A stretch of 64,000 nt of DNA from a virus. This document shows positions 4,214 through 58,364 of this stretch, one piece after another (within the stretch, counting starts at the first letter, position 1; the number at the start of each line of letters is the position of its first letter). Where the stretch lies: IMG/VR virus record IMGVR_UViG_3300045988_144418, positions 1 to 64,000 of that record, one strand, 5' to 3'. Made by a program: the position numbers and the translations under genes. The notes under the pieces were generated by a model. That model saw only the letters and a program-made list of their open reading frames with translations. It made no database searches and was not told where the DNA came from.

Positions 4214-4232
4214 AATTTCATCTATTTTACGG

Positions 4233-4264
4233 CAAATATAAATGTTTTATAGGTAAAGAACAAA
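4233..4264 (-). promoter_or_regulatory. promoter for the rep gene (-33 TTTG, 20-nt spacer, -7 TATATTTG)
   Basis: The minus strand reads AAATTTGTTCTTTACCTATAAAACATTTATATTTGCCG about 20 nt upstream of the ATG. It is adjacent to the iterons, a typical autoregulatory arrangement. Confidence 0.5.
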
Positions 4265-4294
4265 TTTATTATTCCGCACTTGGTAATTAGAAAT

Positions 4295-4373
4295 ATAGTT
4301 CATTGTGCAGAAAGTTATAGTTCATTGTGCAGAAAGTTATAGTTCATTGTGCAGAAAGTTATAGTTCATTGTT
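4295..4373. repeat. iterons: 3.5 tandem copies of the 22-bp unit ATAGTTCATTGTGCAGAAAGTT
   Basis: Perfect copies at 4295-4316, 4317-4338 and 4339-4360, with a partial copy at 4361-4373. The units are contiguous with no spacers and sit next to the rep promoter. Confidence 0.9.
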
Positions 4374-7014: not shown

Positions 7015-7058
7015 GTCATAGACAACTAAAAGGCCAGTTAGAGTATTTTTGAAATGAC

Positions 7059-7066
7059 TATATTTG
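7059..7066 (+). promoter_or_regulatory. -7 box TATATTTG upstream of 7104
   Basis: The context GAAATGACTATATTTGTCG resembles that of the other promoter copies. Confidence 0.4.
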
Positions 7067-7103
7067 TCGTGTGGTCAATGAATGATTAAAAATTACATAA
7101 GAG

Positions 7104-7793
7104 ATGAAAAAGTACATTTACACCAAGGGGAGTGAATCAGTTACCGTGGAGACTGACGGTCTTGGCAGAATCGATAACTTTATGGTGACAGGTGTTATCG
7201 GAAAGAATTACAGCGGTCTTGTGCAGTCCGGATTCTGCTTCAAGATGGGTGATGCGGTGTCTATCGCTTCCATGTTGAATATGGCAAAGCTCTGCAAGGC
7301 CAAGGTTGAGTGCTTCGAGAGTGATGTTCTTGTTCAGGACGAGAGTGCTGACTATGTTGAGAACGAGCCGGAGCTTGATGGCACGATAGAGGGTCTTAAT
7401 CTTGCTATTGTCAAGGACAAGGCCACCTACGAGGCCAATATGTTTCCGGAGTATGTGGCGGCTCACCCTTATGAGGAGGGGCTCACCAACAGCAACTTTC
7501 CTTGGCTTGTAGCCAGATTCAAGAAGCAGACTGAGAAGCCTGACAGCACCTATGCAGTTCAGGTTCTGGCTGATGACAGGGTTCTTGACTTTGTTGGAAC
7601 GAGTGCCAATCTTGGTGAGATTTCTGTGGACAAGAAGACTCTCACCTGTAAGGCTAAGAACGGCCTGTCGTGGGAGATTGTTGCAGATCTTGGCATTGTT
7701 GAGCCTAAGAATGTGACTTGGTTCACAATTCGTATAACATACAGCGGTGTTCTCTACGAAGCGAAGCTCAATGTGATTCCAGACACAATCTAA
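7104..7793 (+). CDS. hypothetical protein (229 aa)
   Basis: ORF between a promoter box and the portal gene. No recognisable motifs. Confidence 0.55.
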   Translation: MKKYIYTKGSESVTVETDGLGRIDNFMVTGVIGKNYSGLVQSGFCFKMGDAVSIASMLNMAKLCKAKVECFESDVLVQDESADYVENEPELDGTIEGLNLAIVKDKATYEANMFPEYVAAHPYEEGLTNSNFPWLVARFKKQTEKPDSTYAVQVLADDRVLDFVGTSANLGEISVDKKTLTCKAKNGLSWEIVADLGIVEPKNVTWFTIRITYSGVLYEAKLNVIPDTI

Positions 7794-7807
7794 AAATTCT
7801 TCCGTTT

Positions 7808-9529: not shown

Positions 9530-9699
9530 TGGCTTATAGAGAAAGAGTTCCAAGGGTGCAGAGACACGTTGACCCTATGCGGTATCCAGCAGTACAGGGG
9601 CGATATGAGCGTGAAGCGATGAAGAGCTTTGCACCTGTGGAGCTGTTTGGTAACATTGTTGAGACGATGACGAGAATAGTTAAGGAGAAGCGAGGTTGA
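9529..9699 (+). CDS. small hypothetical protein (56 aa; MAYRERVPRVQRH...)
   Basis: The ORF is below the track cutoff. Its ATG overlaps the portal stop (TAATG), and its TGA ends 1 nt before the next ATG, so it fills the gap exactly. Confidence 0.4.
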   Translation: MAYRERVPRVQRHVDPMRYPAVQGRYEREAMKSFAPVELFGNIVETMTRIVKEKRG

Positions 9700-9700
9700 T

Positions 9701-10648
9701 ATGCTTTTTACTGACAAGGACATACAGCGTATTCTGAAGGAAGTGGACTTGTCCACGGCCAAGCTGATAGCTCGTGTTCTTGGCAGGAACTATCTCACGA
9801 AGTATGATCTGGACATTCTGAAGAAGCGTGGTGTTGATCTATTGAAGTTGATTCCGAAGTTTCCAGTACATTATCAGTCGTTTCTGTTTGGTCGTGTTTC
9901 GGCTGCACTGGGCGATTCCATCACCAGGACGATGGGTTATTCTGACCTGTTGCAGTTTCTTCCTAAAATGGGTGATTTTGTCCCGACTGCGATGGAACTG
10001 TCCTTCTATGATGTGGCGGCTAACAAGACATATACACATATAAAGGGCTTTGGTGACAGGCTAAAGAATGACGTGCGGAATGCCATCTCGGCGGAGGAGA
10101 TGTCCTATATTCAGACTGAACAGGCCGCAAGAGCGAATAAGGTCATTCACGACGAGATACTGAACGGCACTATTCAGAAGAGGACAGTGCAGAAGATTGC
10201 TTCCAACATAGCACATCAGATGGATGACTGGAACAGGGACTGGGGGCGCATTGTGGAGACGGAGTGTCAGGACGTGTTTAATCTCGGCAGGGCGCAGACG
10301 TTTATGCAGGATGAGGATGATCCCAAGGTGTTCTTTCAGGTGTACCCTGGAGCCTGTAAGCACTGCATTCGTCTCTATTTGACACACGGTGTGGGGTCAC
10401 AGCCGAGGATATTCAGGCTATCGGAGCTGTTGGCCAACGGCACAAACTATGGTGTGAAGTCGAAGGAATGGAAACCGACAGTACATCCTGTGCATCCATA
10501 TTGCCGCTGTTTAATAAACAGGCTTCCAGAGGGTTATGTGTGGAATGAAGAGAATCATAGGTTTGAGCCTCCTAAGAACTATGTTCGTAAGGTGCAGCGC
10601 AGAAGCAAGGTTCATATTGATATTGGTGATAAACATTATGACGTATAA
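9701..10648 (+). CDS. MuF / SPP1 gp7-like head morphogenesis protein
   Basis: Contains GACKHCIRLY and HPVHPYCRCL, the Cys-rich signature of the Phage_Mu_F domain. It lies immediately after the portal. Confidence 0.65.
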   Translation: MLFTDKDIQRILKEVDLSTAKLIARVLGRNYLTKYDLDILKKRGVDLLKLIPKFPVHYQSFLFGRVSAALGDSITRTMGYSDLLQFLPKMGDFVPTAMELSFYDVAANKTYTHIKGFGDRLKNDVRNAISAEEMSYIQTEQAARANKVIHDEILNGTIQKRTVQKIASNIAHQMDDWNRDWGRIVETECQDVFNLGRAQTFMQDEDDPKVFFQVYPGACKHCIRLYLTHGVGSQPRIFRLSELLANGTNYGVKSKEWKPTVHPVHPYCRCLINRLPEGYVWNEENHRFEPPKNYVRKVQRRSKVHIDIGDKHYDV

Positions 10649-10655
10649 AAATTAT

Positions 10656-11984
10656 ATGATTATGAGATTCAAGAAATGGCTTGGAATAATGACTCCACAG
10701 GAAAAGCTGGAGGAGTATCACGATCTTAGGAAGAGGCTTGCTCAGATAGAGGATGAGGGTAGGGAGCTTGCACATCAGTTTTCTATTCAGAAGTCCATTG
10801 TTGATAGCATCGGTGAGGGTGTGCCTGATTCCAGAAGAGCTGATGTGCTTGCGAAGCACGCTGACTTCATGAAAGGTCACACAAAGCGTGTCACAGCCTG
10901 TGTTAATGAGCGTGAGAAGATTCTGAAGGGAATTGACGTACTTGTTGAGGAGTGTCAGGAGGTGCGTGATGAGATTGAAAAGGGTCGCAAGTTGAACGGC
11001 TTGATGGAGCTTCGCAAGGCTGGCAGTTTGGATGAACGTCAGTATTTTAATCTTGTTAAGTCAGTGGACGGCAAGCCTGTTCGATACGCTGACATGGTTG
11101 TTATGCGTGAATCAGACGGTAAGATTCTTATTCTGCACCGTGTTGATGATGAGATGTGCCCTACTGGAGAAGTGTGCATTCCTGGAGGCCACGTTGAGCC
11201 TGATGAGGATTTTAAGACAGCGGCCTTGCGTGAGTTTAAGGAGGAAACCAATTTGGATCCTATTGTTTCCAGGGGTATTAGGTATCTTGGCGAACATAAG
11301 GACGAGAATGCACATATTCAGTATTATCAGGTGTACGTAGATGGTGGACAGCCTATTACCGTGGATGCGACGGAGGAGTGTTTTTCTGAATGGATTGACA
11401 TAAGTGAGATTCCGTTGAAGAATTTTATTTTTGATCAGGGTAAGATTGTCCTGAATCTTATGAACAGGATATATAGAATGGATTCTGTTGAGCCGCTTGA
11501 CACTGTTGTCAAGGCTGTTCAGGACGGTCGTATGTCTGTTCAGTGCTTTAAGGAAATCTGTTCCGACATTGTGAAAAAGGCACTGGCCACGGAGAACGCA
11601 GCAGCTGTCATTCCTGAAAGTATGGAGGGTGACGTGAAGAAGCTCACTATGCCTGTTCGTGACCCGATGTGTGGCGTTGAGACGCTTTTGAAGGGGATCA
11701 ACGGTGTTGATGAGGTGGTTGTGAATGGCACGGAGACAATTAAGTTTGTCAAGCCATTGTTCATTCATAGTGTTTCCTATGAGGAAAATCCAGAGACAAA
11801 TAGGCTTGTTCAGTGTGCAGTGAGCTATGTTGGTGAAGATTCTGATATGAGCAAGTTAATTGATGTCTTGCGGAATGGTCTGCGGAATGGTTCGGTGAAT
11901 TTCAGAATTAAGGAGGAGGAATTTATCTCCGTTAATGAGAATGGCACGGACTATGTTGGTGACCCCATCTTTGCTGTTATGTAA
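10656..11984 (+). CDS. Nudix hydrolase domain protein (442 aa) with N-terminal coiled coil and an unknown C-terminal domain
   Basis: Nudix box GGHVEPDEDFKTAALREFKEETNL matches GX5EX7REUXEEXGU. The start is set at the ATG after the upstream stop, although the ORF is open from 10536. Confidence 0.75.
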   Translation: MIMRFKKWLGIMTPQEKLEEYHDLRKRLAQIEDEGRELAHQFSIQKSIVDSIGEGVPDSRRADVLAKHADFMKGHTKRVTACVNEREKILKGIDVLVEECQEVRDEIEKGRKLNGLMELRKAGSLDERQYFNLVKSVDGKPVRYADMVVMRESDGKILILHRVDDEMCPTGEVCIPGGHVEPDEDFKTAALREFKEETNLDPIVSRGIRYLGEHKDENAHIQYYQVYVDGGQPITVDATEECFSEWIDISEIPLKNFIFDQGKIVLNLMNRIYRMDSVEPLDTVVKAVQDGRMSVQCFKEICSDIVKKALATENAAAVIPESMEGDVKKLTMPVRDPMCGVETLLKGINGVDEVVVNGTETIKFVKPLFIHSVSYEENPETNRLVQCAVSYVGEDSDMSKLIDVLRNGLRNGSVNFRIKEEEFISVNENGTDYVGDPIFAVM

Positions 11985-43690: not shown

Positions 43691-44350
43691 ATGAATTCCA
43701 CGATTAGGTACATAATTGTTGGTGACAGTGAGACTGGAGGGCTTCCTAATAAGGGCAAACAGGCTTTCTATGACATTGCACTGTGTGAATTTGCCTTTGT
43801 CGTTATAGATATTCAGGAAATGAAAGTGGTGGAGGAATGGAGTACACTCTTTAGACCCTATAAGGACAATCTTGAGTATAACCCCCAGGCACTTGAGGTC
43901 AATGGTCTTACGGTTGAACAGTTGCAGAAAAGCGGTGATGACCTGAAGAACATCTATAAGGAAATGATCATGTTGTTTAAGAAGTATAAGAATCCTCGTA
44001 TAGGAGCGGTACTTGCAGGACATAATTTTCAGCCGTTTGATATGCCTTTTCTCACTAATATGTTTGAGTTTTGCGGTGATAGCATCTGGAATTATGTCAC
44101 GTTCGTGGAGGACACCATGAAGCTGGCTTGGTATCGTGCCAAGGAGCAGGAAAATTACAAGCTCGGAACGTGCTGTCGTATGGAGGGTGTTGATTTGGTT
44201 AACGCTCATCGTGCGCTTGCTGACACAAAGGCGAACGCCCTGTTGCTTTTGAAATACATTTCCTATATGCGTGGCTCTGGAGAGGGTTCGAGCGTTGCGA
44301 TTCCAAGAATGAAGCCGTCTTCCTTTAGAGAGACCTTTCAACTTGTGTAG
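43691..44350 (+). CDS. DEDDh 3'-5' exonuclease (DnaQ / Pol III epsilon-like)
   Basis: ExoI IVGDSETGGL, ExoII AGHNFQPFDMPFL, ExoIII HRALADTKAN. Confidence 0.75.
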   Translation: MNSTIRYIIVGDSETGGLPNKGKQAFYDIALCEFAFVVIDIQEMKVVEEWSTLFRPYKDNLEYNPQALEVNGLTVEQLQKSGDDLKNIYKEMIMLFKKYKNPRIGAVLAGHNFQPFDMPFLTNMFEFCGDSIWNYVTFVEDTMKLAWYRAKEQENYKLGTCCRMEGVDLVNAHRALADTKANALLLLKYISYMRGSGEGSSVAIPRMKPSSFRETFQLV

Positions 44351-46452
44351 TGATGATTGAGTTTAATGAGAATAACAGTCTTTCTTTTCGGCAGCTGGAT
44401 AGTATTATAGACACCACAACGAGAATAGTGCAGAATCTCCCTGTAAAAGCCATAAATCAGCTTATGGAGGGGTATAGGGGGGATCAGGATGCTATGTTGT
44501 CAGAGATGTTTCGTCAGACAGAGAATGTTCTGAAGTTGAACACTACATTGGAAACTGAACGTCTTTCCTATGTCGATCAGCTTATTGAGAGCATGGATGA
44601 GTCCTTGAAGATAATGTCATACAATTACTTCAAGACTACAATGCTTCCTAATTTTAGACAGGGGTGGAGAAATCTTGAGTGGGGTAATATGATTCAGCTG
44701 TACCCGAATAGTGCTTATCTTGCGGCTCGTTCTCATGGGAAGTGCTTTTTGGCTGGAACTCACATCTTGATGGCTGATTGGACAGTGAAGAATGTGGAGG
44801 ACATCTATCCTGGGATGGAGGTGATGGGTATGGACTTTACCCCAAGAAAGGTTTTCACACGGCATATTGGTCGGTCACAGATGTTTACGGTGCACCAGGA
44901 GAATGGCATTTCCTATACCGTGAATAGATTCCACATTCTCTGCCTATGGGATACAAAGAGGAAACACTATGTTGAGGTTCCGATGGGAAATTTTCTGAAA
45001 TATCCTCAAGAAAAACAGAATAGGTTTAGAGGGTACAGAGTGTTTTCGAGCGACAACCCTATACTGGAATATTCTCCTATAGCGGTTGAACCGTATGGTG
45101 ATGGATCCTACTATGGTTTTGCCTGTGACGGTGATCATAAGTTTCTTCTGGAGGACAATACTGTTGTTCATAATTCGTATGAATTTTGTATGGGGCTTCC
45201 TCTGTGGAGGATGTACTCCTATCGTAGACCAAATTTTATGAAGCCTGATATTCCGGACAATAGGAATAGAAAGGAAACTTGCATTATAACCAACACGGAG
45301 ACACTCGGTAAGGAGCATCTGGATAAGATTAAGGAGGAGATTCATACCAATGAAGCACTTTCAGCGGTGCTTAATCCGAACGGCAAGGCTTCGCTTGGAG
45401 CTACTGGCTTTGAGTGTGAGAATGGATCCAAACTGCATCTTAGAGGGAAGGACGGATTCATTCGAGGTCTTCACGTGGGTGCGGCTGTGTCTGATGACCT
45501 CCCTGATGATAGCTCCATCTATAGTCTGGAGCAGAGAGAGAAGTTGAGAGACCTGTTTAAGGGTGCTATCACCCCTATTGTAGAGCCGTATGGATATAAT
45601 ATCGTGGATGGCACACCGTATCAGGCACAGGATCTTTATTATGAGTTGAAGCAGGATCCGAAATTTATGGTGTTTGAGTATCCAGCCATATTTCCTGACG
45701 GCAGACTTTTGGCACCTGATCGTTTTACGTTTGACAAGTTGATGGAGGAAAAGAAGTCCGTGGGTACGCTTGTGTTTAGCCGTGAGTATCTTGTTGTTCC
45801 TATTTCTGACGATTCCACCATTTTTCCTATGGAGATATTAATGCGAAGCACGATAGGAATGGAGAATGTGCGACTTGTAGATAATATTGAATCGTTTCCA
45901 TTCAAGTTGTCCAGAGTGGTTGTAGGGTGTGATTTTGCCGTGTCAGGAAATGTGGGTGCTGACTACACTTGTTATACGGTATGGGGGAAGGATTTGAATG
46001 GTTCCTATTATCTTCTGTACATCTATCGGGAAAAAGGTTTGTCACATAATGAGCAGATAAACAAGATAGAGTACTTGAACACGGTGTTTAAGCCGAATGA
46101 GATTGTGGTGGAGAATAACGGTTTTCAGTCCATTCTTGCTGATATGTGTGTACAGAGAGGAATCAAAAATATATATCCGTTTACCACTACTTCAGGAAAC
46201 AAGAAGGACTTGCGAACAGGGTGGGCGTCGCTTGCAGCTCTATTTGAGAGAGGTGATATACGATGTCCGTATCATCCTGACACACGACAGAGGATAGACA
46301 CTATGTTTGGGGAGTTTACATCTATTGCGTTTCGTTCTGATAAAGGTACACTGGAATCCATTAGCGGTCACGATGACACAGTATCATCCTCGTTTATGGC
46401 AATAAATAGATTACGTGAATCAGCTGTTCAGATAAAGGTTGATGCAGTATAA
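44350..46452 (+). CDS. terL: terminase large subunit, interrupted by a mini-intein in the Walker A motif
   Basis: After removal of the intein, Walker A reads AARSHGK|SYEF. Walker B-like GAAVSDDLPDD. Nuclease-domain acidic motifs VVGCDFAVSG, IVVENNGFQ and GHDDTVSS. The start is GTG 44350 or ATG 44353. Confidence 0.75.
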   Translation: MMIEFNENNSLSFRQLDSIIDTTTRIVQNLPVKAINQLMEGYRGDQDAMLSEMFRQTENVLKLNTTLETERLSYVDQLIESMDESLKIMSYNYFKTTMLPNFRQGWRNLEWGNMIQLYPNSAYLAARSHGKCFLAGTHILMADWTVKNVEDIYPGMEVMGMDFTPRKVFTRHIGRSQMFTVHQENGISYTVNRFHILCLWDTKRKHYVEVPMGNFLKYPQEKQNRFRGYRVFSSDNPILEYSPIAVEPYGDGSYYGFACDGDHKFLLEDNTVVHNSYEFCMGLPLWRMYSYRRPNFMKPDIPDNRNRKETCIITNTETLGKEHLDKIKEEIHTNEALSAVLNPNGKASLGATGFECENGSKLHLRGKDGFIRGLHVGAAVSDDLPDDSSIYSLEQREKLRDLFKGAITPIVEPYGYNIVDGTPYQAQDLYYELKQDPKFMVFEYPAIFPDGRLLAPDRFTFDKLMEEKKSVGTLVFSREYLVVPISDDSTIFPMEILMRSTIGMENVRLVDNIESFPFKLSRVVVGCDFAVSGNVGADYTCYTVWGKDLNGSYYLLYIYREKGLSHNEQINKIEYLNTVFKPNEIVVENNGFQSILADMCVQRGIKNIYPFTTTSGNKKDLRTGWASLAALFERGDIRCPYHPDTRQRIDTMFGEFTSIAFRSDKGTLESISGHDDTVSSSFMAINRLRESAVQIKVDAV
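44743..45174 (+). mobile_element. class-1-type mini-intein (144 aa, no homing endonuclease domain) within terL
   Basis: It begins CFLAGTHILMADW (Cys1, Hint block A) right after GK of the P-loop. It ends LLEDNTVVHN, followed by Ser+1, which restores GKS. Confidence 0.75.
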
Positions 46453-49534: not shown

Positions 49535-49990
49535 ATGATTAAGGTAAGGATTTTTAATGAAAGTAAGTTTCTGGGGTCGGAGTATTTTCCAGAATATAAG
49601 AGTTTGGGTGCGTCAGGCGTGGATCTTAGGGCTGACATCGGTGAGGATATTGTGCTTCATCCAATGCAGCGAATGTTGATTTCAACAGGTCTGCGAATAG
49701 CTATTCCTCAGAATTATGAGGCACAGGTTCGCTCTCGTTCAGGGCTTACAGTGAAGAACGGTGTTATTGTTCTTTCTCCAGGTACCATAGATAGTGATTA
49801 TAGAGGGGTTATTGGTGTTCCTTTGGCCAATCTGGGTGATGAGGATTTTGTAATTCATAGAGGGGATTGTATTGCACAGCTTGTTTTTCAGAAAGTGGAA
49901 AGAGTTTGGTTTGAGGGTGTCAGCTCTATTGAAGCACTTGGTCTAACTGATCGCGGTGAAGGAGGCTTTGGTCATACAGGCGTGAAATAG
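49535..49990 (+). CDS. dut: dUTP diphosphatase (trimeric dUTPase)
   Basis: The five dUTPase motifs are present: GASGVDLRA, RSRSGL, GTIDSDYRGVIGV, GDCIAQLVF and RGEGGFGHTG. Confidence 0.9.
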   Translation: MIKVRIFNESKFLGSEYFPEYKSLGASGVDLRADIGEDIVLHPMQRMLISTGLRIAIPQNYEAQVRSRSGLTVKNGVIVLSPGTIDSDYRGVIGVPLANLGDEDFVIHRGDCIAQLVFQKVERVWFEGVSSIEALGLTDRGEGGFGHTGVK

Positions 49991-50008
49991 AAATTTTCAA
50001 GAATATTC

Positions 50009-50039
50009 TTTGGATATCTAAGATAAGTGACTATATTTG
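50009..50039 (+). promoter_or_regulatory. promoter (-33 TTTG, 19-nt spacer, -7 TATATTTG)
   Basis: TTCTTTGGATATCTAAGATAAGTGACTATATTTGCACTG belongs to the conserved promoter family. Confidence 0.55.
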
Positions 50040-50075
50040 CACTGTGAAATTTTAACAATTAAATCAAAAACGTTT

Positions 50076-50669
50076 ATGGAACAGAAAGAATTGTCCGTAA
50101 GGATGAAAATTCGTAAGTTTAAGAATGACGCTGCCAAGCTGTCAGAAATCATTGAGTCAGAGGCTTCCACCGAACTGGAAAAGAAAGTGGCTTCGGAGTA
50201 TCTTGCCAAGTTGCAGGAACTCCCGCAGTCTGAACAGCCAGAAGCACCGCAAGCTCCGGAGGAGACGACACTTTTTCCTGAGGAAGAGGAGAAGTCAGCC
50301 CCTAAGAAGGAAGAGTCTATCAGTTCCGAGCTTACTCCTGAGGAAGTCGCTCGTCTTGATGCAGCGGAGAAGAAGTTCGATGAGCGTCAGGCCAGTCGTA
50401 AGACACCATCAAAGGGTGACAAGAATATGCGTGAGGAGCGTAAGAAGAAAAGTTCAACGGCTAATCTGCATGAGGGCAAACGTGAGAATCTTGAAGAATC
50501 CACGGAGGTTCCTGGTCTGAAGGTTGGTTCTACTGTAAAGGTGGGTAATGAGGAAGGCTCTGTCATTCGTGTCTATCGTAGCACCGACGGCAAGGAGAAG
50601 TGTATGGTCAAGATCGGAGACGGCAAGCCTGTCAAGAAGCGTGTTACTTCCGTGGAACTTGTAAAATAG
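50076..50669 (+). CDS. hypothetical charged/disordered protein with C-terminal small beta (KOW/SH3-like) domain
   Basis: The first ATG after the promoter. The centre is rich in E, K and P. The C-terminus is KVGSTVKVGNEEGSVIRVYRSTDGKEKCMVKIGDGKPVKKRV. Confidence 0.5.
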   Translation: MEQKELSVRMKIRKFKNDAAKLSEIIESEASTELEKKVASEYLAKLQELPQSEQPEAPQAPEETTLFPEEEEKSAPKKEESISSELTPEEVARLDAAEKKFDERQASRKTPSKGDKNMREERKKKSSTANLHEGKRENLEESTEVPGLKVGSTVKVGNEEGSVIRVYRSTDGKEKCMVKIGDGKPVKKRVTSVELVK

Positions 50670-50678
50670 TCGGGATTT

Positions 50679-51413
50679 ATGGTTACGGATTCAGGAACCA
50701 TAATTCTTATCAAGGGGGTCAGTGGAAGCGGTAAATCCACAAGGGTTTATTGCTTCCTTGATTTCCTGGAAAGCATTGGAATGAAACTGAAGCCATATCA
50801 GTTTGTGAATATACTTGGACAGACACAGGAGATAGGCTTGTATTCAGAGGAGTTGAATATGCTTTTTCTGGGAAAGTTCTATGACGACAATGGTGTTCGT
50901 AGGTGGCAGGGGTTGGATGCTGTTACAGGGCGATTGCACACGGCTGAGGGTCTTTCCTATTTCCTGAAGTGGGCTGGTCAGCGGAAGTTGAATGTTGTGC
51001 TGGAGGGGGCTGGAACGTCCGTGACGTGGCGATTGCGTCCGATGGAGATATGTGCCGAGTATGAGTATCTAAATATTCTCTATTTGGTCTATACGTTCAA
51101 ACTGGAGCAGTATGATGACTATATCAGGAGAATAGAGTATCGCTCGGGCAAGGCTCCGAAAAGCGACGCTATGTGGCGGAAGCGCAAGGGGTTTGAATCA
51201 GACTATACTCAGACTGTTGCGGAAGCGAAGGACTTGAATGCAGCAGGAGCGGACATTGTCATCAAGTACAATCTTTTCGATGTTGAAGCATGGGATCTCG
51301 GTGTAAGCATTATGCAGTATTTCGGTCTTGACGAGTTGTGCGATGAGTTCAAGCTGTTTGTGGAGGGTGGTGGTTATATTGGGCAGAATTCCTATGAAAA
51401 CATTGGTAGATGA
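50679..51413 (+). CDS. P-loop kinase-like protein (candidate nucleotide or 5-hmdU DNA kinase)
   Basis: Walker A IKGVSGSGKST. The gene sits within the nucleotide-metabolism cluster. The substrate is unknown. Confidence 0.45.
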   Translation: MVTDSGTIILIKGVSGSGKSTRVYCFLDFLESIGMKLKPYQFVNILGQTQEIGLYSEELNMLFLGKFYDDNGVRRWQGLDAVTGRLHTAEGLSYFLKWAGQRKLNVVLEGAGTSVTWRLRPMEICAEYEYLNILYLVYTFKLEQYDDYIRRIEYRSGKAPKSDAMWRKRKGFESDYTQTVAEAKDLNAAGADIVIKYNLFDVEAWDLGVSIMQYFGLDELCDEFKLFVEGGGYIGQNSYENIGR

Positions 51414-52423
51414 GTAAAATAGTTCCAAATGACAATTTGACGTACCTCTTCTATTGGTGCTGTGAACGAATGAACATATTCTGGAAGCGGTATAATGGAG
51501 AGCAGTATCCATGGACTGATGATGAGATATTACAGCAGTATAAGTTCACAAATGTGTATCGGGTGCTGGATAGGTCAAGTCAGTATATGCTTCGTAACGT
51601 TATCTATAATGGTAAGCAGTATTCTCCGGAGGATATGTTTTTTCGTATTTTACTTTATAAGCATTTTAATCTTCCTGACACGTGGGGTGCCCTGATTAAG
51701 GAGTTTGGTGATATTACATACGACACCGGATGGGAGAACATTGCACGTTTTCTGGATGATAGAGGTAGACAGGACATCACCATCTATTCTAATGCCTTTA
51801 TGTTGACAGGGTGGTTTTATTCTCTTCCGGAGTATGCTAATATTCGTGGGACTTCAAAACATCGTGGATATTTTGAGGTGTTTAAGCGTCGAATTTTTGA
51901 TAATGGTAAGATTGATGCTTTTCTCAGTGCTGCAAGTTTTGAAGAGCTTTTTGGTATGTTTAAGGAGCTTGAACCATTTAGCGACTTCATGTCACAGCAG
52001 TATTGTCTTGACATGAATTATTCCCCTTTATACAACTTTACTGAGAATGACTTTGTGGTTGTCGGCCCTGGAAGTAAAAGGGGGATTCAATTTGCATTTA
52101 AGGGGGATCATAGAGATGACGGTGAAGTTGTTATCAGGTGGATGCAGGAGCACTTTGAGGAACTGATGACAAAGTTCTGTCAGGATTCAGGTATGATTTG
52201 GAATCCATTGCCGTGGGAGCCAGTGCCTACACTGACGAACATTCAAAATTGTTTTTGTGAGCTATCAAAGTATGCTAAATGTATGGGTGTGCAGTTTAAG
52301 AAGAATACTAAAGGTAGGATGAAAAATCTTTATACTACACCAAAATCAGAAATTTCTTATATGTTTCCACGGAAATGGAATGTTAAGATGCCGTTAAAAG
52401 GGCAGATAGAAACTTATAAATAA
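51410..52423 (+). CDS. candidate aGPT-Pplase-like DNA base hypermodification protein (alpha-glutamyl/putrescinyl thymine pyrophosphorylase family)
   Basis: PWTDDEILQQYKFTNVYRVLDR and PFSDFMSQQYCLDMNY..FVVVGPGSKRG resemble my recollection of that family. The assignment has not been verified by a search. Confidence 0.4.
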   Translation: MSKIVPNDNLTYLFYWCCERMNIFWKRYNGEQYPWTDDEILQQYKFTNVYRVLDRSSQYMLRNVIYNGKQYSPEDMFFRILLYKHFNLPDTWGALIKEFGDITYDTGWENIARFLDDRGRQDITIYSNAFMLTGWFYSLPEYANIRGTSKHRGYFEVFKRRIFDNGKIDAFLSAASFEELFGMFKELEPFSDFMSQQYCLDMNYSPLYNFTENDFVVVGPGSKRGIQFAFKGDHRDDGEVVIRWMQEHFEELMTKFCQDSGMIWNPLPWEPVPTLTNIQNCFCELSKYAKCMGVQFKKNTKGRMKNLYTTPKSEISYMFPRKWNVKMPLKGQIETYK

Positions 52424-52432
52424 AAAACGATT

Positions 52433-53560
52433 ATGGATTTTGTATTTGATAATCTTAGTCAGGCTTTTGTTGGGCTTTTAAGGGATCTTAAGGCTTTTGG
52501 TACTTGGACACAGAGGGGAACCAATTCAGCAGGAAATATGTGCTTGGAATTTCCAGAGCCAGTGCTTATAAAGATATATAATCCACTGAATAGATATGTT
52601 TTTGTTCCGGAGCGCAAGTGGAACAAGACGTTGGGGTGGATTGAATCACTCTGGATTGCCAGAGGTGACAACTCGCTTGAAATGCCGTCAGCCTATGTCA
52701 AGAACCTGTTGACGTTCTCCGATGACGGTGAGACAATGCGTGCAGGATACGGCCCGAGGATTCGTGCCTTTGGTGGTCATCTGTGGAAGAAAGGTGTTCG
52801 ATTTGAAGAGGGTTCACCGCTATACTGGATGAAGCAGCAGTATGATTCCAGATATGGGAATGGTACGGTTGCCGTTGTGGATCAGTTGAAATTTGTGATT
52901 GACAAATTTAAGCAGGATCCAACCACGAGGGAGGCTGTCATTACGATTCATGACCCTATGGCTGATGACTTCAGTGGCAAGGAGATTCTTAGAACGAAGG
53001 ACACCCCTTGCACACGCTCCATTCACTTTATGATCGTAGATGGCAAGATGAACTGTTACGTGGATATGAGATCTAATGATCTGTTCTGGGGCTTCAGTGC
53101 TGTCAATGTCTTCAATTTCACTTTGATGCAGGAGTATGTCGCCGCGATGGTGGGTGTGCCTGTGGGGGTATATTATCACAAAGTTGATAATTTGCACATG
53201 TACGAAGGATCTTTGCCTATGGCTAGGAATATTACTTCTATTTATGGAACAATGGCAGCAGTTGAAAAATGGTCTGACTTATATAGTTTTGATGAGGAAT
53301 TAGATTGGCACGGTTATAAACATACATTTACCACATTGGAGGTCTTTGACAATCTAATAGCGTTGCTATCTGAGTTTGAGCGTGGGATGCGTGGTGTCGA
53401 TGATTTGCCGTACAGCAAGGATGAAGCTCTGGAAACAATGAACATGATGTTTGGGGGTGAGCCGATGTTTATGGACTGGGCAAAGGTTATCTATCGTAAG
53501 TGGTCAAAGGACACGACCGTGACATTTGACAATCCGTATCTGACAAAGTTATTTGTCTGA
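52433..53560 (+). CDS. thymidylate synthase-fold enzyme (ThyA family; dUMP hydroxymethylase or thymidylate synthase) with a C-terminal extension of about 110 aa
   Basis: ESLWIARGDN; TPCTRSIHFMIVDGKMNCYVDMRSNDLFWGFSAVNVFNFTLM; DNLHMY. These align with the E. coli ThyA catalytic Cys146, R166, S167, D169, N177, H207 and Y209. Confidence 0.8.
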   Translation: MDFVFDNLSQAFVGLLRDLKAFGTWTQRGTNSAGNMCLEFPEPVLIKIYNPLNRYVFVPERKWNKTLGWIESLWIARGDNSLEMPSAYVKNLLTFSDDGETMRAGYGPRIRAFGGHLWKKGVRFEEGSPLYWMKQQYDSRYGNGTVAVVDQLKFVIDKFKQDPTTREAVITIHDPMADDFSGKEILRTKDTPCTRSIHFMIVDGKMNCYVDMRSNDLFWGFSAVNVFNFTLMQEYVAAMVGVPVGVYYHKVDNLHMYEGSLPMARNITSIYGTMAAVEKWSDLYSFDEELDWHGYKHTFTTLEVFDNLIALLSEFERGMRGVDDLPYSKDEALETMNMMFGGEPMFMDWAKVIYRKWSKDTTVTFDNPYLTKLFV

Positions 53561-53680
53561 AGTTACTTTGTAGAAACCATAAGAACAGCCGTGCAACCTC
53601 TGGTCGGGAAGCCTGTGATAGGTAAGGAGGAAGTTCGAGACTTCTCACGGCTGCAAGAACTAAATAAAAATGATTTCGTT

Positions 53681-54220
53681 ATGAACTACAAAAAGATTGA
53701 CTATCTACTTCAGATGAAGCAGATACAGAGACTTCCAAATGTCCCCCATCATAGAAGTTATAATATTCTTGAGCACAGCTTTGTAGTCGGTATGCTTTTC
53801 AGGTGGTTTGCTTCCGCCTGTGATGTCTCCTACGATATAAATGTGTGGGATAAGGTGCTTATGCACGACTATCTTGAAGCATTTACAGGGGATTTGAACT
53901 TTGTTGTTAAGAATTTGACAGAGAAGACATCAAGTGCGTGGGCGACGATAGAGAAGGAGGTCTGTGATCATGACACTGTTTTGAATCATTATTCTGATGA
54001 AGCCATAAAGTCCGCCATGACGGAGGAGCAGCGCATTCTCTTTAAGGTGTGTGACTATCTTGATTTGTGGATTTTCTGCAAGCAGGAGGAGGCACTTGGT
54101 AATACCACGATTGGAAACAAGACCGTTATAGATAACTGTAAGAAGCTCATCTATGGTCTCTGTGGGCAGGATAGAAAGTGGTTTCCTATCTTTGATTTTA
54201 TGTGCAAATATACAGCGTAG
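53681..54220 (+). CDS. HD-domain phosphohydrolase (YfbR-like 5'-deoxynucleotidase candidate)
   Basis: ILEHSFVV ... LMHDYLEAFTGDL gives the H...HD...E..D metal-binding pattern. The start is set at the ATG after the AAAAATGATTTCGTT element. Confidence 0.6.
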   Translation: MNYKKIDYLLQMKQIQRLPNVPHHRSYNILEHSFVVGMLFRWFASACDVSYDINVWDKVLMHDYLEAFTGDLNFVVKNLTEKTSSAWATIEKEVCDHDTVLNHYSDEAIKSAMTEEQRILFKVCDYLDLWIFCKQEEALGNTTIGNKTVIDNCKKLIYGLCGQDRKWFPIFDFMCKYTA

Positions 54221-54222
54221 CT

Positions 54223-54885
54223 ATGGATGAAAGAACCCCAGTTGAGATATATGCCTTTGTCGGGGTGATTGGCTCCGGCAAGAGCTATCGGCTTGAGCAG
54301 ATGAAGAGAGAATACAATGGTGTCGGTCAGGTTGTCATTACCGCTGACTTTTCAGATGGTATTCGAGATCTAACACGTCAGCTTTTGGGGTATGGTGCTA
54401 ACTTCGGTGATGTGAATTCACAGGAATATCGTGACTGGAAGGAGAACGTGGCCTGTGTGACAGTTCACAATGGAGCGGTGGTGAATTCTTTCACTGGACG
54501 TGATGTGTTGCGTAATGTGGGAGAGTCCACGAAGTGTATTGCAGGTCAGAACGTGTGGGCGAGATATACGACACAGTCCTTATATTCACGCATAGCGTAT
54601 CAGGCATTTCGCTCTGATTTATGTGTGAGTGGTGTTCGGGTGCTTATAGGGTCAGTGCGATTCAAGTGCGAGGCTCGGAGCATATTTGAGCTCTTTAGCG
54701 ATGTAGCAGCCAATATGGATAGCTTTATGAATCCGTCCTTGCACTTTATATTCTGCGACTATCACTCGTCGAGCTATGATGCGGCAAGTGGTCACGTCAG
54801 TGAGGCACTTGCACAGATCGTGTTGAATACAGGCAAGTACAAGGATGGTGATGATATCACCGAACTGATAGACACAATGGTATGA
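54223..54885 (+). CDS. deoxynucleoside monophosphate kinase (T4 gp1-like)
   Basis: P-loop FVGVIGSGKSYR. FSDGIRDLTRQLLGY and GRDVLRNVGESTKCIAGQNVWARY parallel the T4 gp1 segments PIKDALAYAWG and VRRLMQALGTDL..MYWVKLF, which I am recalling from memory. Confidence 0.5.
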   Translation: MDERTPVEIYAFVGVIGSGKSYRLEQMKREYNGVGQVVITADFSDGIRDLTRQLLGYGANFGDVNSQEYRDWKENVACVTVHNGAVVNSFTGRDVLRNVGESTKCIAGQNVWARYTTQSLYSRIAYQAFRSDLCVSGVRVLIGSVRFKCEARSIFELFSDVAANMDSFMNPSLHFIFCDYHSSSYDAASGHVSEALAQIVLNTGKYKDGDDITELIDTMV

Positions 54886-57800
54886 GACAGGAATTTGAAC
54901 AGTATCTACAGAGGAACCTGATGTCATATACGGAGGTCAGTCCTTATGTGTATGAAATAGATGGTAGGACATTCGAACTCTATAAGCCTGACAATGATGG
55001 CGCATTGTTTGACGATGACTTCAGGTTTACAGGCATTCCGGCCAATTTAGCGAGATACACCTCCACTGAGAAAACGGTGGACACACAGTGTGACTTTTAT
55101 GCCTATAAGTTTGGAGGAGTGTGGTATATGCTTCCAAGGGATGATAGAGACAAGGTTAAGTTGAAGCGCCTGAAATATCTTGGGGAAGCGGTGCAGGAGA
55201 TTCCAACACCTGTCTTTATGGGTGTTCATGGTCAGTATGAGATTATGTCGGGCTCCGGAACGTATGCTGATTGGTGTGCAAAGGCGAAGTTCTACGGTGT
55301 TACGACACTTGGTATCTGTGAGAAGAACACTTTGTCGGGTGTCTTGAAATTTCAGGTGGAATGTCAGAAGAACGGCCTGAAGCCTGTTATCGGGATGGAA
55401 TGCACTGTATATGATATTGTCAAGGACTTTAGGTTCACGGCCAAGGTGTTTGTCAGAAATGAGGTGGGTTGGCAGAGCATCCTCACTATGTCGGAAGCCA
55501 TTAACTGTGATAATCCTGGGTATATTCTCATTGACCAGTTTAGAGAGGAAATAAGCCGAAATGCGGAAGGATTGGTGGTGGTTGCAGACCCCAAGACGAC
55601 TGACTATGACAAGTTCGCTGAAATCGGTCTAAAAATAGATTACTATCAACTTGACCCTGTTAGATATGCGGAAGAATCTCGTGATGAAGTGTATTTGAAG
55701 AACCTGAGAAAATTTTATCATAGTGGTATGCTTGCTCTTCCTATGGCTGATGCTTGGTATCTGGACGAGGAGTATAGCTGTATCAGATCGAGACTTGCAA
55801 GCATAGGTGGATCTAACTTTTATGACAGTGATGATCAGTGGTTTAAGCCGAATGATGTATTGTTCTGTCAGCTTGCTGACATGTTTCCAAGCACGGATGA
55901 TGGTCTGGGGCTTGCGTACCAGGACTTTTTAGATGGGCTTGAAAGGTTGATGGATCTTGCTGATAGCATTGGCTTTATCGTGGACACAACCAAACGCCAT
56001 CTTCTACGCTACATTATGACAGAGGATGAAGCCGCTAAGTATGTCACCAATGAGGATATGTTCTGGGGGCTTATTGACGAGGGACTTCAGCGGCATCCTG
56101 AGCTGATTGAACAGTACGGTGAGGATGTGGTGATGGAACGCATTGATAGAGAAGTTGGTGTAATTAAGTTGGGGGATACAATCGATTACTTCCTAATTAC
56201 GAGGGATATTGTGAATTGGTGTCATCATAATGATATTATGACAGGTATATCCAGAGGTTCGGCAGGAGGGTGTCTTATCTCGTATCTTCTTGGGATCACA
56301 AAGTTGGATCCAATAGGCTATAATCTACTTTTTGAGAGGTTTTTGAACGAGGGTCGTGTAAAGAAAAGTCTTCCTGATATAGATACGGATTTCCCTGGAG
56401 AAGACCGAGGAAAAGTCAAGCAGTATATGGAACAACGATTTGGGGAGGTTAATGTCTGTTCTGTGGGTACTTATTCCGCCTTGCAGCTGAGAGCGGCTAT
56501 CAAGGACATGTCTCGTGTGTATGGGCTGGAGTTTCAAGAGGTGAATGATATGATGAAACTCTTTGCCGTGGATGATCGTAAGCCTGAAGACCTGTTTAGG
56601 ATAGCGTGTGCACAGCCACGTGTGAAGAAGTTTGTTAGAGAGCATTCTGACTTGGTGAATGAGGTGATGCTGATTATGCCAGCCCCCAAGGCACGTTCCG
56701 TTCACGCCTGTGCCACTATGATATTTCCGAAGGAGCACGATATGTTTCACTGGACACCTATTCGCAAACAGAACGGAGAGTATGTGACTGAGTGGGAGGG
56801 TGGTGAAATGGACGGTGCAGGATTTCTGAAGAATGATATCTTGGGTATTAAGCAGCTTGATAAATTTCAGAATATGGTGCGTCTTGTCAAGGAGAACGAG
56901 GGTGTTGATGTGGATATTTTCAATGTGCCGCTTGACGATTCAGAGGTGTATCGTTACTTTCAGAACGGCTGGACGGAGGATAATTTTCACTTCGGCTCTC
57001 GTGGTTTGACAGGCTACTGTAAGGAGATGAAGCCTGAAAACATAGAGGACTTGATTGTGGCCATCGCCCTGTATCGTCCTGGAGCAATGGAGAACGGCTT
57101 CCATACGGAGTATGTTAAGCGTAAGGAGGGTGCGCCTGTAAGTTACTTTGTAGGTTCCGAGGAAATTCTTTCCAATACTTATGGGATTTTCTGTTTTCAG
57201 GAACAGATCATGGAGTTGTGTAAGCATCTTGGGGGGCTTTCACTTGTGGAAGCTGATGACGTGCGAAAGGCGATGGTGAAGAAGAAGTACGAAGCACTTC
57301 ATCAGTATCATCCAAGATTTGTTGACAACTATGTGACACAGTTCGGTGTCACGAATGAATATGCTGAAAGTGTGTGGGATGCTATTGACAAGGCTTCCAC
57401 TTACCTGTTTAACCGTTCTCATGCTGTCGCCTATGCTCTTACTGGCTATATCTCGCAGTGGATGAAAGTACACTACCCAATAGAATACTGGAGTGTTGCG
57501 TTCAAGGAAGCGATGACGGAGGATTACCCTCGCTATATTGCTGAGATTAACAAGACAGGTGTCTGCACGGTGAGGTCTGTGGATATCAATCTGTCGGGAA
57601 CAGGCGTGTATATTGACTTTGCGGCCAGAACGCTCTATTGGTCTGTCACAGGCGTTAAGCAGGTGGCTGAAAAGGCGGCTACACAGATACTCAAGGAACG
57701 TGATGAGAATGGTAGGTATTGGTCTTTGGATGACTTTGTGACACGACATAAGTGGAAAGGGTCAGCGGTGAACACGAGGGTTGTGCAGAATCTTATTCTC

Positions 57801-58364
57801 GCAGGGGCATTTGATGACGTGGAGAACATCACTGATGCCTCTCAGAGGGTGGAACTATTGATATCCTATCTTGCTTCCACAAAAAACAAGTTGAATGAGA
57901 CTGATCCTATTATAGCAGGGTTTGACATTCACAGGAATGATGCTTGGTGGTGGCAGCTTATGCAGAAGAAACTTTCAGGGCTTGCATTCTTTGACTATGC
58001 AGGTCTTTATGACAAGGTGAAGCAGTTTTTCCCTGTTGACTATGAGTATTATACCTTTGAGGAATGTAGTGACGTGGAATATCGTCCTAACAGGGGATAT
58101 GTCATTGTTGGTGGGTATGTGTCAGCGATAGACCTGAAAAAAACCAAGAAAGGAGACATTCTATGCCGTATAACACTGGAGAACAACTATGAGTTTCTGG
58201 ACTTGGTTGTATTCCAGACGGAATATGAGCGGCTTCAGGAGGAGATTGCTGCAAGCAAGGATAATATCGTGCTTTTGAATGCAACACTTTACTATGACGC
58301 ACGGAATGATAAAAACGCCTTGCGTGCTGATATGGAGACATCCATTGTGACATTTAAGTTATAA
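54882..58364 (+). CDS. dnaE: DNA polymerase III alpha subunit (DnaE-type replicative polymerase)
   Basis: 1160 aa. PHP region FMGVHGQYE..LGICEKNTLSG. Palm signature GISRGSAGGCLISYLLGITKLDPIGYNLLFERFLNEGRVKKSLPDIDTDF. Also ALYRPGAME and FNRSHAVAYA. Confidence 0.9.
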   Translation: MRQEFEQYLQRNLMSYTEVSPYVYEIDGRTFELYKPDNDGALFDDDFRFTGIPANLARYTSTEKTVDTQCDFYAYKFGGVWYMLPRDDRDKVKLKRLKYLGEAVQEIPTPVFMGVHGQYEIMSGSGTYADWCAKAKFYGVTTLGICEKNTLSGVLKFQVECQKNGLKPVIGMECTVYDIVKDFRFTAKVFVRNEVGWQSILTMSEAINCDNPGYILIDQFREEISRNAEGLVVVADPKTTDYDKFAEIGLKIDYYQLDPVRYAEESRDEVYLKNLRKFYHSGMLALPMADAWYLDEEYSCIRSRLASIGGSNFYDSDDQWFKPNDVLFCQLADMFPSTDDGLGLAYQDFLDGLERLMDLADSIGFIVDTTKRHLLRYIMTEDEAAKYVTNEDMFWGLIDEGLQRHPELIEQYGEDVVMERIDREVGVIKLGDTIDYFLITRDIVNWCHHNDIMTGISRGSAGGCLISYLLGITKLDPIGYNLLFERFLNEGRVKKSLPDIDTDFPGEDRGKVKQYMEQRFGEVNVCSVGTYSALQLRAAIKDMSRVYGLEFQEVNDMMKLFAVDDRKPEDLFRIACAQPRVKKFVREHSDLVNEVMLIMPAPKARSVHACATMIFPKEHDMFHWTPIRKQNGEYVTEWEGGEMDGAGFLKNDILGIKQLDKFQNMVRLVKENEGVDVDIFNVPLDDSEVYRYFQNGWTEDNFHFGSRGLTGYCKEMKPENIEDLIVAIALYRPGAMENGFHTEYVKRKEGAPVSYFVGSEEILSNTYGIFCFQEQIMELCKHLGGLSLVEADDVRKAMVKKKYEALHQYHPRFVDNYVTQFGVTNEYAESVWDAIDKASTYLFNRSHAVAYALTGYISQWMKVHYPIEYWSVAFKEAMTEDYPRYIAEINKTGVCTVRSVDINLSGTGVYIDFAARTLYWSVTGVKQVAEKAATQILKERDENGRYWSLDDFVTRHKWKGSAVNTRVVQNLILAGAFDDVENITDASQRVELLISYLASTKNKLNETDPIIAGFDIHRNDAWWWQLMQKKLSGLAFFDYAGLYDKVKQFFPVDYEYYTFEECSDVEYRPNRGYVIVGGYVSAIDLKKTKKGDILCRITLENNYEFLDLVVFQTEYERLQEEIAASKDNIVLLNATLYYDARNDKNALRADMETSIVTFKL

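Follow-up and report, generated by a model that had tools for sequence, protein, structure and literature searches.

Introduction

Thymidine hypermodification guards phage DNA from restriction enzymes and nucleases and has been a source of new DNA chemistry and new enzymes. All pathways solved to date pass through a clade-2 transferase (PF18724), a member of the alpha-glutamyl/putrescinyl thymine pyrophosphorylase (aGPT-Pplase) group. The closest known system to the locus described here is gp185-gp191 of the Bacillus phage SP10, in which a P-loop kinase acting on 5-hydroxymethyldeoxyuridine (5-hmdU) in DNA, an aGPT-Pplase of clade 1, a dUMP hydroxymethylase of about 380 aa and a DNA polymerase follow one another, and in which no clade-2 transferase was detected (Lee 2018, PMC5889632 Table 3). 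The present study concerns a cassette with this same order of functions, located at positions 49,535 to 54,885 of a 64,000-nt stretch (hereafter the window; positions 1 to 64,000 of IMG/VR record IMGVR_UViG_3300045988_144418) from an uncultured human-gut phage with a genome of about 100 kb. Replacement of T by 5-hmdU and subsequent phosphorylation of that base in DNA are well supported by the sequence comparisons, and with moderate confidence we favour a two-stage thymidine-modification pathway in which the clade-1 protein would act as the second-stage enzyme adding a nucleophile.

SP10 differs from the window in several respects. Its kinase and clade-1 domains are fused and its kinase belongs to family 1 (PF18748), whereas the window carries two overlapping genes and a family-2 kinase (PF18747); its large neighbouring gene product gp185, reported to be a radical-SAM protein, has no counterpart in the window; and SP10 is a member of the Herelleviridae with a Firmicute host and a PolA-type polymerase, whereas the window phage encodes DnaE and probably has a Bacteroidota host. 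Salmonella phage ViI and other Kuttervirus members, whose DNA contains 5-NeOmdU, possess a comparable operon of kinase gp67, a ThyA-like enzyme, dnk and a dUTPase, the window kinase being of the type of another ViI kinase, gp243. ViI also encodes a clade-1 protein (gp160), and its dnk is related to the 220-aa kinase of the window. Unlike the window, ViI adds a family-1 kinase (gp67), a serine:DNA transferase of clade 2 (gp247) and a pyridoxal-phosphate (PLP) decarboxylase (gp226), and its dUTPase bears the label of nucleoside triphosphate pyrophosphohydrolase, that of the window being trimeric.

Pseudomonas phages M6 and PaMx11 and Acinetobacter phage SH-Ab 15599 (5-NedU, 5-AcNmdU, dapT) likewise combine a dUMP hydroxymethylase with a 5-hmdU DNA kinase; in PaMx11 an HD-domain gene stands right after the hydroxymethylase gene, and in 15599 a dTTPase/dUTPase redirects the nucleotide pool (PMC13458397). 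Unlike the window, these phages have a clade-2 transferase, for which structures have been solved (8Z2M for PaMx11 gp46; YuA Pplase2), and M6 and PaMx11 add tailoring enzymes. The Bacillus phages SPO1, SP8 and phi-e have a pre-replicative stage like the one proposed for the window, with a dUMP hydroxymethylase (SPO1-type gp29), a dNMP kinase and hydrolases depleting dTTP and dTMP (Lee 2022, PMC8989533), but end at 5-hmdU, without a DNA kinase or an aGPT-Pplase. In Microbacterium phages (BouleyBill, for example), the gene for a P-loop kinase and that for clade 1 overlap, a ThyA-fold enzyme is encoded nearby and no clade-2 match was obtained, yet the kinase belongs to a third family (PF18751) and the ThyA-fold enzyme bears an Asp at the base-selecting position and groups with T4 gp42 (99% bootstrap; BouleyBill sequence L076, 1357-2830 and 4367-5179). 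Clade 1 may operate in 5-hydroxymethylcytosine contexts too.

No published description was found of a family-2 kinase with a separate, overlapping clade-1 gene, no clade 2 and a DnaE polymerase in a gut Bacteroidota-type phage. The metavirome survey of Lee 2022 (PMC8989533) probably missed such cassettes, because its queries were family-1 kinases only. Pfam already contains the individual domain families, and the cassette is a new combination, not a new category. Comprising 5-hmdU supply, a DNA-base kinase and clade 1 only, it offers a natural minimal system for learning the role of clade 1, and possibly informs the conversion of 5-hmdU to thymine in DNA, a question that dates back to studies of SP10 and PhiW-14 in the 1970s-80s. 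If kinase 2 and clade 1, without clade 2, do install an undescribed thymine modification, clade 1 (about 5,000 sequence clusters) would constitute a second, independent family of DNA-base transferases. The lineage consists of abundant human-gut phages of about 100 kb, probably infecting Bacteroidota; if their DNA is modified, the sequencing and cloning of gut viromes could be biased, and the modification would bear on phage-host dynamics in Bacteroidota.

A predicted dUMP 5-hydroxymethylase

The 375-aa ThyA-fold protein matched Pfam PF00303 (Thymidylat_synt, E = 4e-17) over residues 71-264 only, and scored below the cut-offs of all seven NCBIfam thymidylate-synthase equivalogs (66 vs 174.6, 52.6 vs 327 and 50 vs 108, among others). 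Its closest PDB relatives are MilA hydroxymethylases (E = 9e-24), thymidylate synthases following at E = 9e-11 or weaker, and its top matches in cultured phages belong to the SPO1-like, ViI-like and M6/PaMx11/Ab18-like lineages, which contain 5-hmdU or hypermodified T; identity with SP10 gp188 reaches 34% (E = 4e-34). In a neighbour-joining tree built from a 12-sequence alignment, the protein clustered with the SPO1-type, SP10, ViI, PaMx11 and Montesquieu hydroxymethylases (bootstrap 98.5%), apart from E. coli ThyA, the T4-like (PS2) td and T4 gp42.

The catalytic residues C193, R213, S214, D216, H255 and Y257 are present, whereas two features of thymidylate synthase, its Cys-His dyad and its Trp80/Trp83 folate-loop region, have not been retained. 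Asn225 aligns with N177 of E. coli, a position occupied by Asp in T4 gp42, MilA and two Bacteroides-phage enzymes, and is preceded by a one-residue insertion common to four of the five dUMP-hydroxymethylase-type references, SP10 gp188 being the exception. The first-pass annotation of the locus, made by a model from the sequence alone, had proposed a ThyA-fold hydroxymethylase specific for uracil and suggested a phylogeny to check it: Asn225, the identity with SP10 gp188, the grouping with dUMP hydroxymethylases rather than thymidylate synthases and the failed thymidylate-synthase cut-offs all agree with that proposal, and the protein is predicted to convert dUMP into 5-hmdUMP. The C-terminal extension of about 110 aa singled out by the same annotation does exist but is not unusual, since phage dUMP hydroxymethylases are similarly long or in any case greatly exceed the 264 aa of E. 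coli ThyA, with 383 aa in SPO1-type gp29, 382 aa in SP10 gp188, 348 aa in PaMx11 and 346 aa in ViI.

A predicted 5-hmdU DNA kinase of family 2

Profile searches placed the 244-aa protein, earlier described as P-loop kinase-like and possibly a 5-hmdU DNA kinase, in PF18747 ('5-hmdU DNA kinase 2'; E = 5e-22, 78.9 bits vs a cut-off of 25), upholding that suggestion. It is 30% identical (E = 2e-20) to a 300-aa Kuttervirus kinase, the syntenic orthologue of ViI gp243, and phmmer with ViI gp243 retrieves it at E = 2e-18; with the PF18748 kinases ViI gp67 and SP10 gp186N it shares only the P-loop, its Walker A motif reading GVSGSGKST. Conversion of 5-hmdU in DNA to 5-phosphomethyl-dU (5-PmdU) has been reported for gp243, gp67, PhiW-14 gp37, SP10 gp186 and the gp186 kinase domain alone (Lee 2022, PMC8989533), and on family grounds the 244-aa protein is predicted to phosphorylate the hydroxymethyl group of 5-hmdU in the same way.

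An exclusive module of kinase 2 and clade 1, to which near-identical genus-by-genus counts had pointed, was considered and rejected, as kinase 2 adjoins a clade-2 transferase in ViI and Cygsa01. In one relative (L086, 56% identity), a GIY-YIG/NUMOD3 homing-endonuclease gene (6394-7011) stands between the kinase and clade-1 genes, and a second homing-endonuclease gene follows DnaE.

The clade-1 aGPT-Pplase

The resemblance of the 337-aa protein to aGPT-Pplases, at first noted in short segments, was recovered by profile search and can be narrowed to clade 1: PF18723 matched at E = 4e-74 (250 bits vs a cut-off of 25), with residues 11-292 covering profile positions 5-275 of 281. This Pfam family, earlier aGPT-Pplase clade 1, is now named 'HMUDK_hel' (5-hmdU DNA kinase, helical domain), and phage records label homologues of the protein as aGPT-Pplase clade 1. 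Residues 318-635 of SP10 gp186 align with it at 25% identity (E = 1e-19).

Twenty-two columns are invariant across 38 clade-1 sequences, down to 38% identity, and include D54, R55, Q58, R79, N87, Q197, D201, N280, C283, E284 and K287. A hairpin G-x-G-x-x-x-G corresponds to G219/G221/G225, of which G221 and G225 are among the invariants, and the Cys-Glu-x-x-Lys motif (C283-E284-x-x-K287, its Cys-Glu pair belonging to QNCFCE) is also conserved in SP10 gp186. The AlphaFold2 model (pLDDT 94, pTM 0.91) is all-helical. In BFVD it matched SP10 gp186 (TM 0.76) and PhiW-14 gp72, and PhiW-14 gp72 and SP10 gp186C are the 'aG/PT-PPlase1' entries of Lee 2018 (PMC5889632 Table 3); it also matched, weakly, 'amino acid:DNA transferase' (clade-2) proteins (probability >= 0.99, TM 0.42-0.45). 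Against the PDB, Foldseek returned nothing below E = 0.4, the only matches being weak ones to HhH-GPD glycosylases, and hmmsearch of the clade-1 profile against PDB sequences gave no match.

The clade-1 family comprises 5,031 representatives at 50% identity (3,443 with E <= 1e-10), most of them standalone proteins of about 330 aa; some homologues on related gut contigs of about 100 kb represent hundreds to thousands of identical metagenome sequences. Recurrent fusions join N-terminal P-loop kinases, or C-terminal MazG/MazG_C, radical-SAM, group-1 glycosyltransferase or MT-A70 domains, to clade 1, and examples include P0154 (glycosyltransferase), P0288 (MT-A70), P0200, P0202 and P0213 (MazG plus MazG_C), P0118 (radical SAM) and P0169 and P0172 (Tmk-like kinases). 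At least four kinds of P-loop kinase are fused to clade 1 or overlap it, namely those of SP10 gp186, the Microbacterium phages (Ploopntkinase3), the Tmk-like fusions and kinase 2 of the window. Among cultured phages, clade 1 occurs without detectable clade 2 in SP10-like Bacillus, Microbacterium, Nodularia and Brevibacterium phages, of which only SP10 has chemically characterised DNA (alpha-glutamylthymine and T; PMC5889632).

We read clade 1 as an enzyme rather than a passive kinase domain, because the SP10 kinase is active without its clade-1 domain (PMC8989533), because a homing-endonuclease gene parts the kinase and clade-1 genes in one relative, and because the family combines invariant polar residues with fusions to enzymes of the tailoring type.

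Search for partner enzymes

The Pfam scan covered all sizeable ORFs (open reading frames) of the window and 8.7 kb further on an ENA scaffold, and was extended over about 30 kb of a 102.5-kb IMG/VR relative, 91-98% identical in six cassette proteins, the seventh, the dUTPase, being encoded there by an interrupted gene, so that about 95% of the relative's genome was covered. Within this scope no match to the clade-2 transferase family PF18724 was found, ViI gp247 matching it at E = 3e-58 as a positive control; nor did Pfam report any PLP enzyme, radical-SAM protein, flavin adenine dinucleotide (FAD) lyase, acetyltransferase or glycosyltransferase. Searches of all six-frame ORFs with ViI gp247, gp226 and gp67 and SP10 gp185 (phmmer --max) gave no match, the only one obtained being that of gp243 to the 244-aa kinase. 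The first-pass annotation had seen no PLP, radical-SAM or glycosyltransferase partner in the window, an observation that now extends to most of a related genome. Its wider claim, that T is replaced by 5-hmdU and the latter then hypermodified, stands for the replacement and for phosphorylation, whereas hypermodification is not secured, clade 2 being absent. None of the outcomes that the annotation had named as refuting it was encountered.

A distant relative (L088, 39% identity) carries three extra cassette ORFs (363, 393 and 252 aa; 5785-8038 and 9110-9868) without a Pfam match, which are candidates for new tailoring enzymes. Other genes of the close relative (L072 1381-2292, minus strand; L014 14227-15840) encode a Dam-like D12 N6-adenine methyltransferase, a GroEL-type chaperonin, an ECF-type sigma factor, a Dps/ferritin-like protein and an RNase H.

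The proposed two-stage pathway

In the first, pre-replicative stage, the dUTPase would supply dUMP and keep dUTP out of DNA, the ThyA-fold enzyme would turn dUMP into 5-hmdUMP, and the 220-aa kinase, together with the host NDP (nucleoside diphosphate) kinase, would carry 5-hmdUMP to 5-hmdUTP, while the HD nucleotidase would drain dTMP. The adjacent DnaE would then incorporate 5-hmdUTP, giving DNA with 5-hmdU in place of T. In the second, post-replicative stage, the gp243-type kinase would, judging from its family membership, produce 5-PmdU in DNA, and the clade-1 protein, encoded by the overlapping next gene, would flip out the phosphorylated base. By analogy with clade 2, Cys283, assisted by Glu284, would attack C6, the phosphate would leave, an exocyclic methylene would form and a nucleophile would add to it. 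A clade-1 step through Cys283/Glu284 is speculative, but it is the mechanism we prefer; the acceptor nucleophile is most likely a cellular metabolite yielding a hypermodified thymine, if SP10 is a guide. The cassette does not define the finished base, since the only known transferase (clade 2) is absent from the scanned sequence and clade 1 is an uncharacterised relative.

The pathway is supported by the adjacency of the same genes in ViI (kinase, ThyA-like, dnk, dUTPase), SP10 and PaMx11, and by the precedent of SP10, where alpha-glutamylthymine is made with clade 1 only (PMC5889632 Table 3). A more general proposition, that kinase 2 and clade 1 without clade 2 form a module which either installs an undescribed thymine modification or turns 5-hmdU back to thymine through clade 1, is advanced tentatively and seems doubtful.

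Several points weigh against a role of clade 1 in group transfer. In every biochemically characterised pathway this step belongs to clade 2 (PF18724). Kinase and clade-2 enzyme alone sufficed for transfer in lysate reconstitutions of the M6 and ViI pathways; the M6 glycinyl intermediate still formed when gp55, a second aGPT-Pplase, was omitted; and ViI gp160, included in the original mix of five lysates, was not among the proteins assigned a function (PMC8989533). No paper was found that assigns a function or an activity to a clade-1 protein, and the activity of the SP10 kinase domain without clade 1, cited above in favour of an enzymatic role, can also be counted on this side. At the sequence level the two clades are unlinked, hhalign of the clade-1 profile against ViI gp247 giving no homology, and the PDB fold search with the 337-aa model did not retrieve the solved clade-2 structure 8Z2M. 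Clade-2 enzymes depend on a conserved Cys and on a Glu close to it, and the Cys attacks C6 of 5-PmdU (PMC8989533), the attacking residue being Cys247 (PMC11472151); the motifs surrounding the Cys are similar in character but differ, N-C-F-C-E-x-x-K in clade 1 vs E-[TS]-x-x-C-x-x-K in clade 2.

The supply stage has weaknesses as well. Thr194 follows the catalytic Cys193 of the ThyA-fold enzyme, as in T4 gp42 and MilA, where known dUMP enzymes have Asn and thymidylate synthase has His, a minor unexplained point, and the assignments of the HD protein as a candidate dTMPase that would deplete thymidine nucleotides and of the 220-aa kinase as probably the dNMP kinase for 5-hmdUMP are weakly supported.

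Restriction palindromes, counted over window positions 1-64000 and L001 12300-20963, add a further difficulty. Those containing T are strongly avoided (observed vs expected: CTAG, 2 vs 107; CTGCAG, 1 vs 28; GTATAC, 0 vs 12), which is not expected if all T carried a bulky modification. Avoidance extends to CGCG (8 vs 68), CATG (84 vs 296) and GC-only 6-mers (0 vs 12), and GC-only 4-mer palindromes are more depleted than A/T-containing ones (0.52 vs 0.74); as a proxy for DNA protection, palindrome avoidance is ambiguous.

Alternative readings

The main alternative is that clade 1 reduces 5-PmdU to ordinary thymine, the modification being transient and mature DNA containing T and perhaps residual 5-hmdU. 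The four classical hypermodifying phages SP10, PhiW-14, ViI and M6 do turn leftover 5-hmdU into T, through an enzyme yet to be assigned (PMC5889632, PMC8989533), and all four have a paralogue of the clade-1 type according to Lee 2018 (PMC5889632 Table 3), those of SP10 and PhiW-14 being confirmed here; the kinase and the clade-2 enzyme alone are needed for the hypermodifying transfer of M6 (PMC8989533). The chemistry is feasible, as a clade-2 enzyme supplied with borohydride yields T from 5-PmdU; the avoidance of T-containing palindromes would fit a mature DNA largely unprotected; and no tailoring enzyme was detected in the scanned sequence. Nevertheless, neither Pfam nor NCBIfam reveals a reductant-binding domain or cofactor motif in the 337-aa protein, SP10 makes glutamylthymine besides T with clade 1 only, the fusions of clade 1 to radical-SAM, glycosyltransferase and MT-A70 domains suggest a product that is elaborated further, and a round trip from T through hmU back to T brings no obvious benefit. 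On these grounds reduction to thymine is considered unlikely.

Rather less probable is a role of clade 1 as a non-catalytic subunit of the kinase, serving DNA binding, base flipping or targeting, with 5-phosphomethyl-dU or 5-hmdU as the final base. The current Pfam and UniProt name of the family and its fusion to, or overlap with, kinase genes would suit such a subunit, as would the lack of transferase, PLP and radical-SAM genes over the scanned sequence and the protection from NcoI conferred by phosphorylation alone (PMC8989533). However, the kinase domain of SP10 keeps its full activity in the absence of clade 1 (PMC8989533), the two genes are separated in L086, the invariant Cys-Glu-x-x-Lys and the many invariant polar residues look more like an active site, and no report describes 5-PmdU as an end product.

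An ordinary thymidylate synthase with salvage kinases and canonical DNA, the null hypothesis of the first-pass annotation, would agree with the above-cut-off match to Thymidylat_synt and with the PHROGs family label 'thymidylate synthase', but is very improbable given the distance from all seven equivalog cut-offs, the position inside the hydroxymethylase clade, the missing dyad and folate-loop features and the presence of two neighbouring genes from families exclusive to 5-hmdU modification systems. Equally improbable is a cytosine pathway, in which the ThyA-fold enzyme would make 5-hmdCMP and the downstream enzymes would act on 5-hydroxymethylcytosine: Thr194, the CMP hydroxymethylases as best PDB matches and the pairing of clade 1 with an Asp-bearing gp42-like enzyme in Microbacterium phages speak for it, but Asn225 stands where every cytosine-specific enzyme aligned has Asp, the tree places the protein with dUMP hydroxymethylases, the cassette begins with a dUTPase, not a dCTPase, and activity on 5-hmdU has been demonstrated for the kinase family.

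Gene layout and conservation

The cassette consists of seven tightly packed ORFs (Table 1) just 5' of the phage DnaE gene, with intergenic distances of -4 to 120 nt and ATGA stop/start overlaps at two junctions, between the 244-aa kinase and 337-aa genes and between the 220-aa kinase and DnaE genes. All seven were found with the coordinates and strand first annotated, and the motifs quoted with them (PWTDDEILQQYKFTNVYRVLDR, VVVGPGSKRG, PCTRSI and VNVFNF) can be read in the translations. On an independent human-gut scaffold in ENA (101.6 kb) the same genes are called, save that the kinase is shortened to 184 aa and lacks the P-loop; the longer call of 244 aa has the correct start, since its similarity to the Pfam profile sets in at residue 7.

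Table 1. Genes of the cassette and the adjacent polymerase, with the basis of each assignment.
Feature	Coordinates	Strand	Length and basis
Trimeric dUTPase	49535..49990	+	151 aa; PF00692, NF001862, phrog_135
Highly charged conserved protein	50076..50669	+	197 aa; within longer TTG ORF from 50037
[quoted passage not shown]
Clade-1 aGPT-Pplase 'HMUDK_hel'	51410..52423	+	337 aa; PF18723
ThyA-fold dUMP 5-hydroxymethylase (predicted)	52433..53560	+	375 aa; PF00303, tree
YfbR-like HD 5'-deoxynucleotidase (predicted)	53681..54220	+	179 aa; PF12917; alternative starts 53591, 53615
P-loop small-molecule kinase, probably dNMP kinase	54223..54885	+	220 aa; phrog_139, ViI dnk
DnaE-type replicative polymerase (context)	54882..58364	+	Pfam PHP, DNA_pol3_alpha, finger, HHH_6

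Relatives were recovered from IMG/VR by protein-seeded scans. Five contigs of 60-107 kb have the seven genes in the same order, without stop codons and at 64-98% protein identity; a 109-kb contig has all seven at 33-64% identity, and a more distant contig of 84 kb keeps the kinase, clade-1, ThyA-like and HD genes at 35-42%. This conservation far exceeds chance. A megablast search of 50,697 phage records with the cassette gave no match, an exact-pattern scan for this genome in IMG/VR was equally negative, and a scan for sigma-70 promoters and terminators, which does not model Bacteroidota promoters, found fewer matches than in shuffled sequence.

By DnaE, the closest cultured phages (30-39% identity) infect Tenacibaculum, Cellulophaga, Chryseobacterium and Bacteroides, all of them Bacteroidota, and BACON domains in the structural proteins fit the same host group; the host is probably a member of this phylum. 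The cassette is not carried by these nearest cultured Bacteroidota phages. Chryseobacterium phage MA9V-3, the nearest cultured DnaE relative of about 100 kb, encodes queE, folE (deazaguanine-type) and a 374-aa 'thymidylate synthase 2' (L090, 16834-17958), but lacks kinase and clade-1 genes in the neighbourhood of DnaE; DNA modifications may differ among related phages.

Nucleotide-supply genes

The dUTPase and the YfbR-like HD protein were both identified as first annotated. The former matched PF00692 (E = 6e-27) and phrog_135 (E = 2e-46), cleared the NCBIfam dUTP diphosphatase equivalog NF001862 (160.7 bits vs a cut-off of 103) and displays the motifs GVDLRA, GTIDSDYRG and RGEGGFGHTG. The latter matched PF12917 (E = 1.5e-16; 61.1 bits vs a cut-off of 25.9) and shows the metal-binding residues H...HD...D, while scoring below the NCBIfam 5'-deoxynucleotidase equivalog (37 bits vs 122). 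In relatives L006 (7284-8581), L007 and L009, an insertion of about 0.8 kb, encoding a 220-aa HNH-type endonuclease, splits the dUTPase gene inside the GTIDSDYRG motif; it resembles a group I intron or a comparable mobile element, and the window's copy is uninterrupted.

The 220-aa kinase had been called a T4 gp1-like dNMP kinase. It is a P-loop kinase with remote kinship to ViI dnk, the neighbour of the ViI hydroxymethylase gene (hhalign probability 87%, E = 4e-6), but the link to T4 gp1 is weak (hhalign E = 0.006, probability 6%), and Foldseek, with which the T4 gp1 fold was sought, returned generic P-loop kinases alone. The protein matched phrog_139 ('dNMP kinase') at E = 5e-6; it has no match to PF21448 (DNMK) itself, which 3 of its 19 homologues do match (best E = 9e-7). 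The 197-aa charged protein had no match in Pfam, PHROG or NCBIfam and has counterparts of 44-96% identity at the equivalent place in relatives.

Elsewhere in the window, among the head genes (10536-11984), a 482-aa protein includes a domain of the NUDIX hydrolase type (Pfam E = 2e-16), with weak NCBIfam matches to MutT and pyrimidine dNTPases, and might act on nucleotide pools too.

Other features of the window and its relatives

In the large terminase subunit (window 44350-46452), an insert of the Hint/intein type (PF05203, E = 9e-15) precedes the RNaseH-like nuclease domain. Window positions 1-4316, with minus-strand genes and negative GC skew, are absent from the 101.6-kb ENA scaffold carrying the remainder of the window, and may represent a genome end or a variable module; a gene from this left end, when looked up, was matched only on contigs of 2 kb. 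In L001 (14790-17702), the SbcCD genes are followed by genes for a papain-fold 'glutamine deamidase'-like protein (377 aa), a RelA/SpoT-like protein (242 aa) and an HD_4 protein (158 aa), which could form an alarmone-type module.

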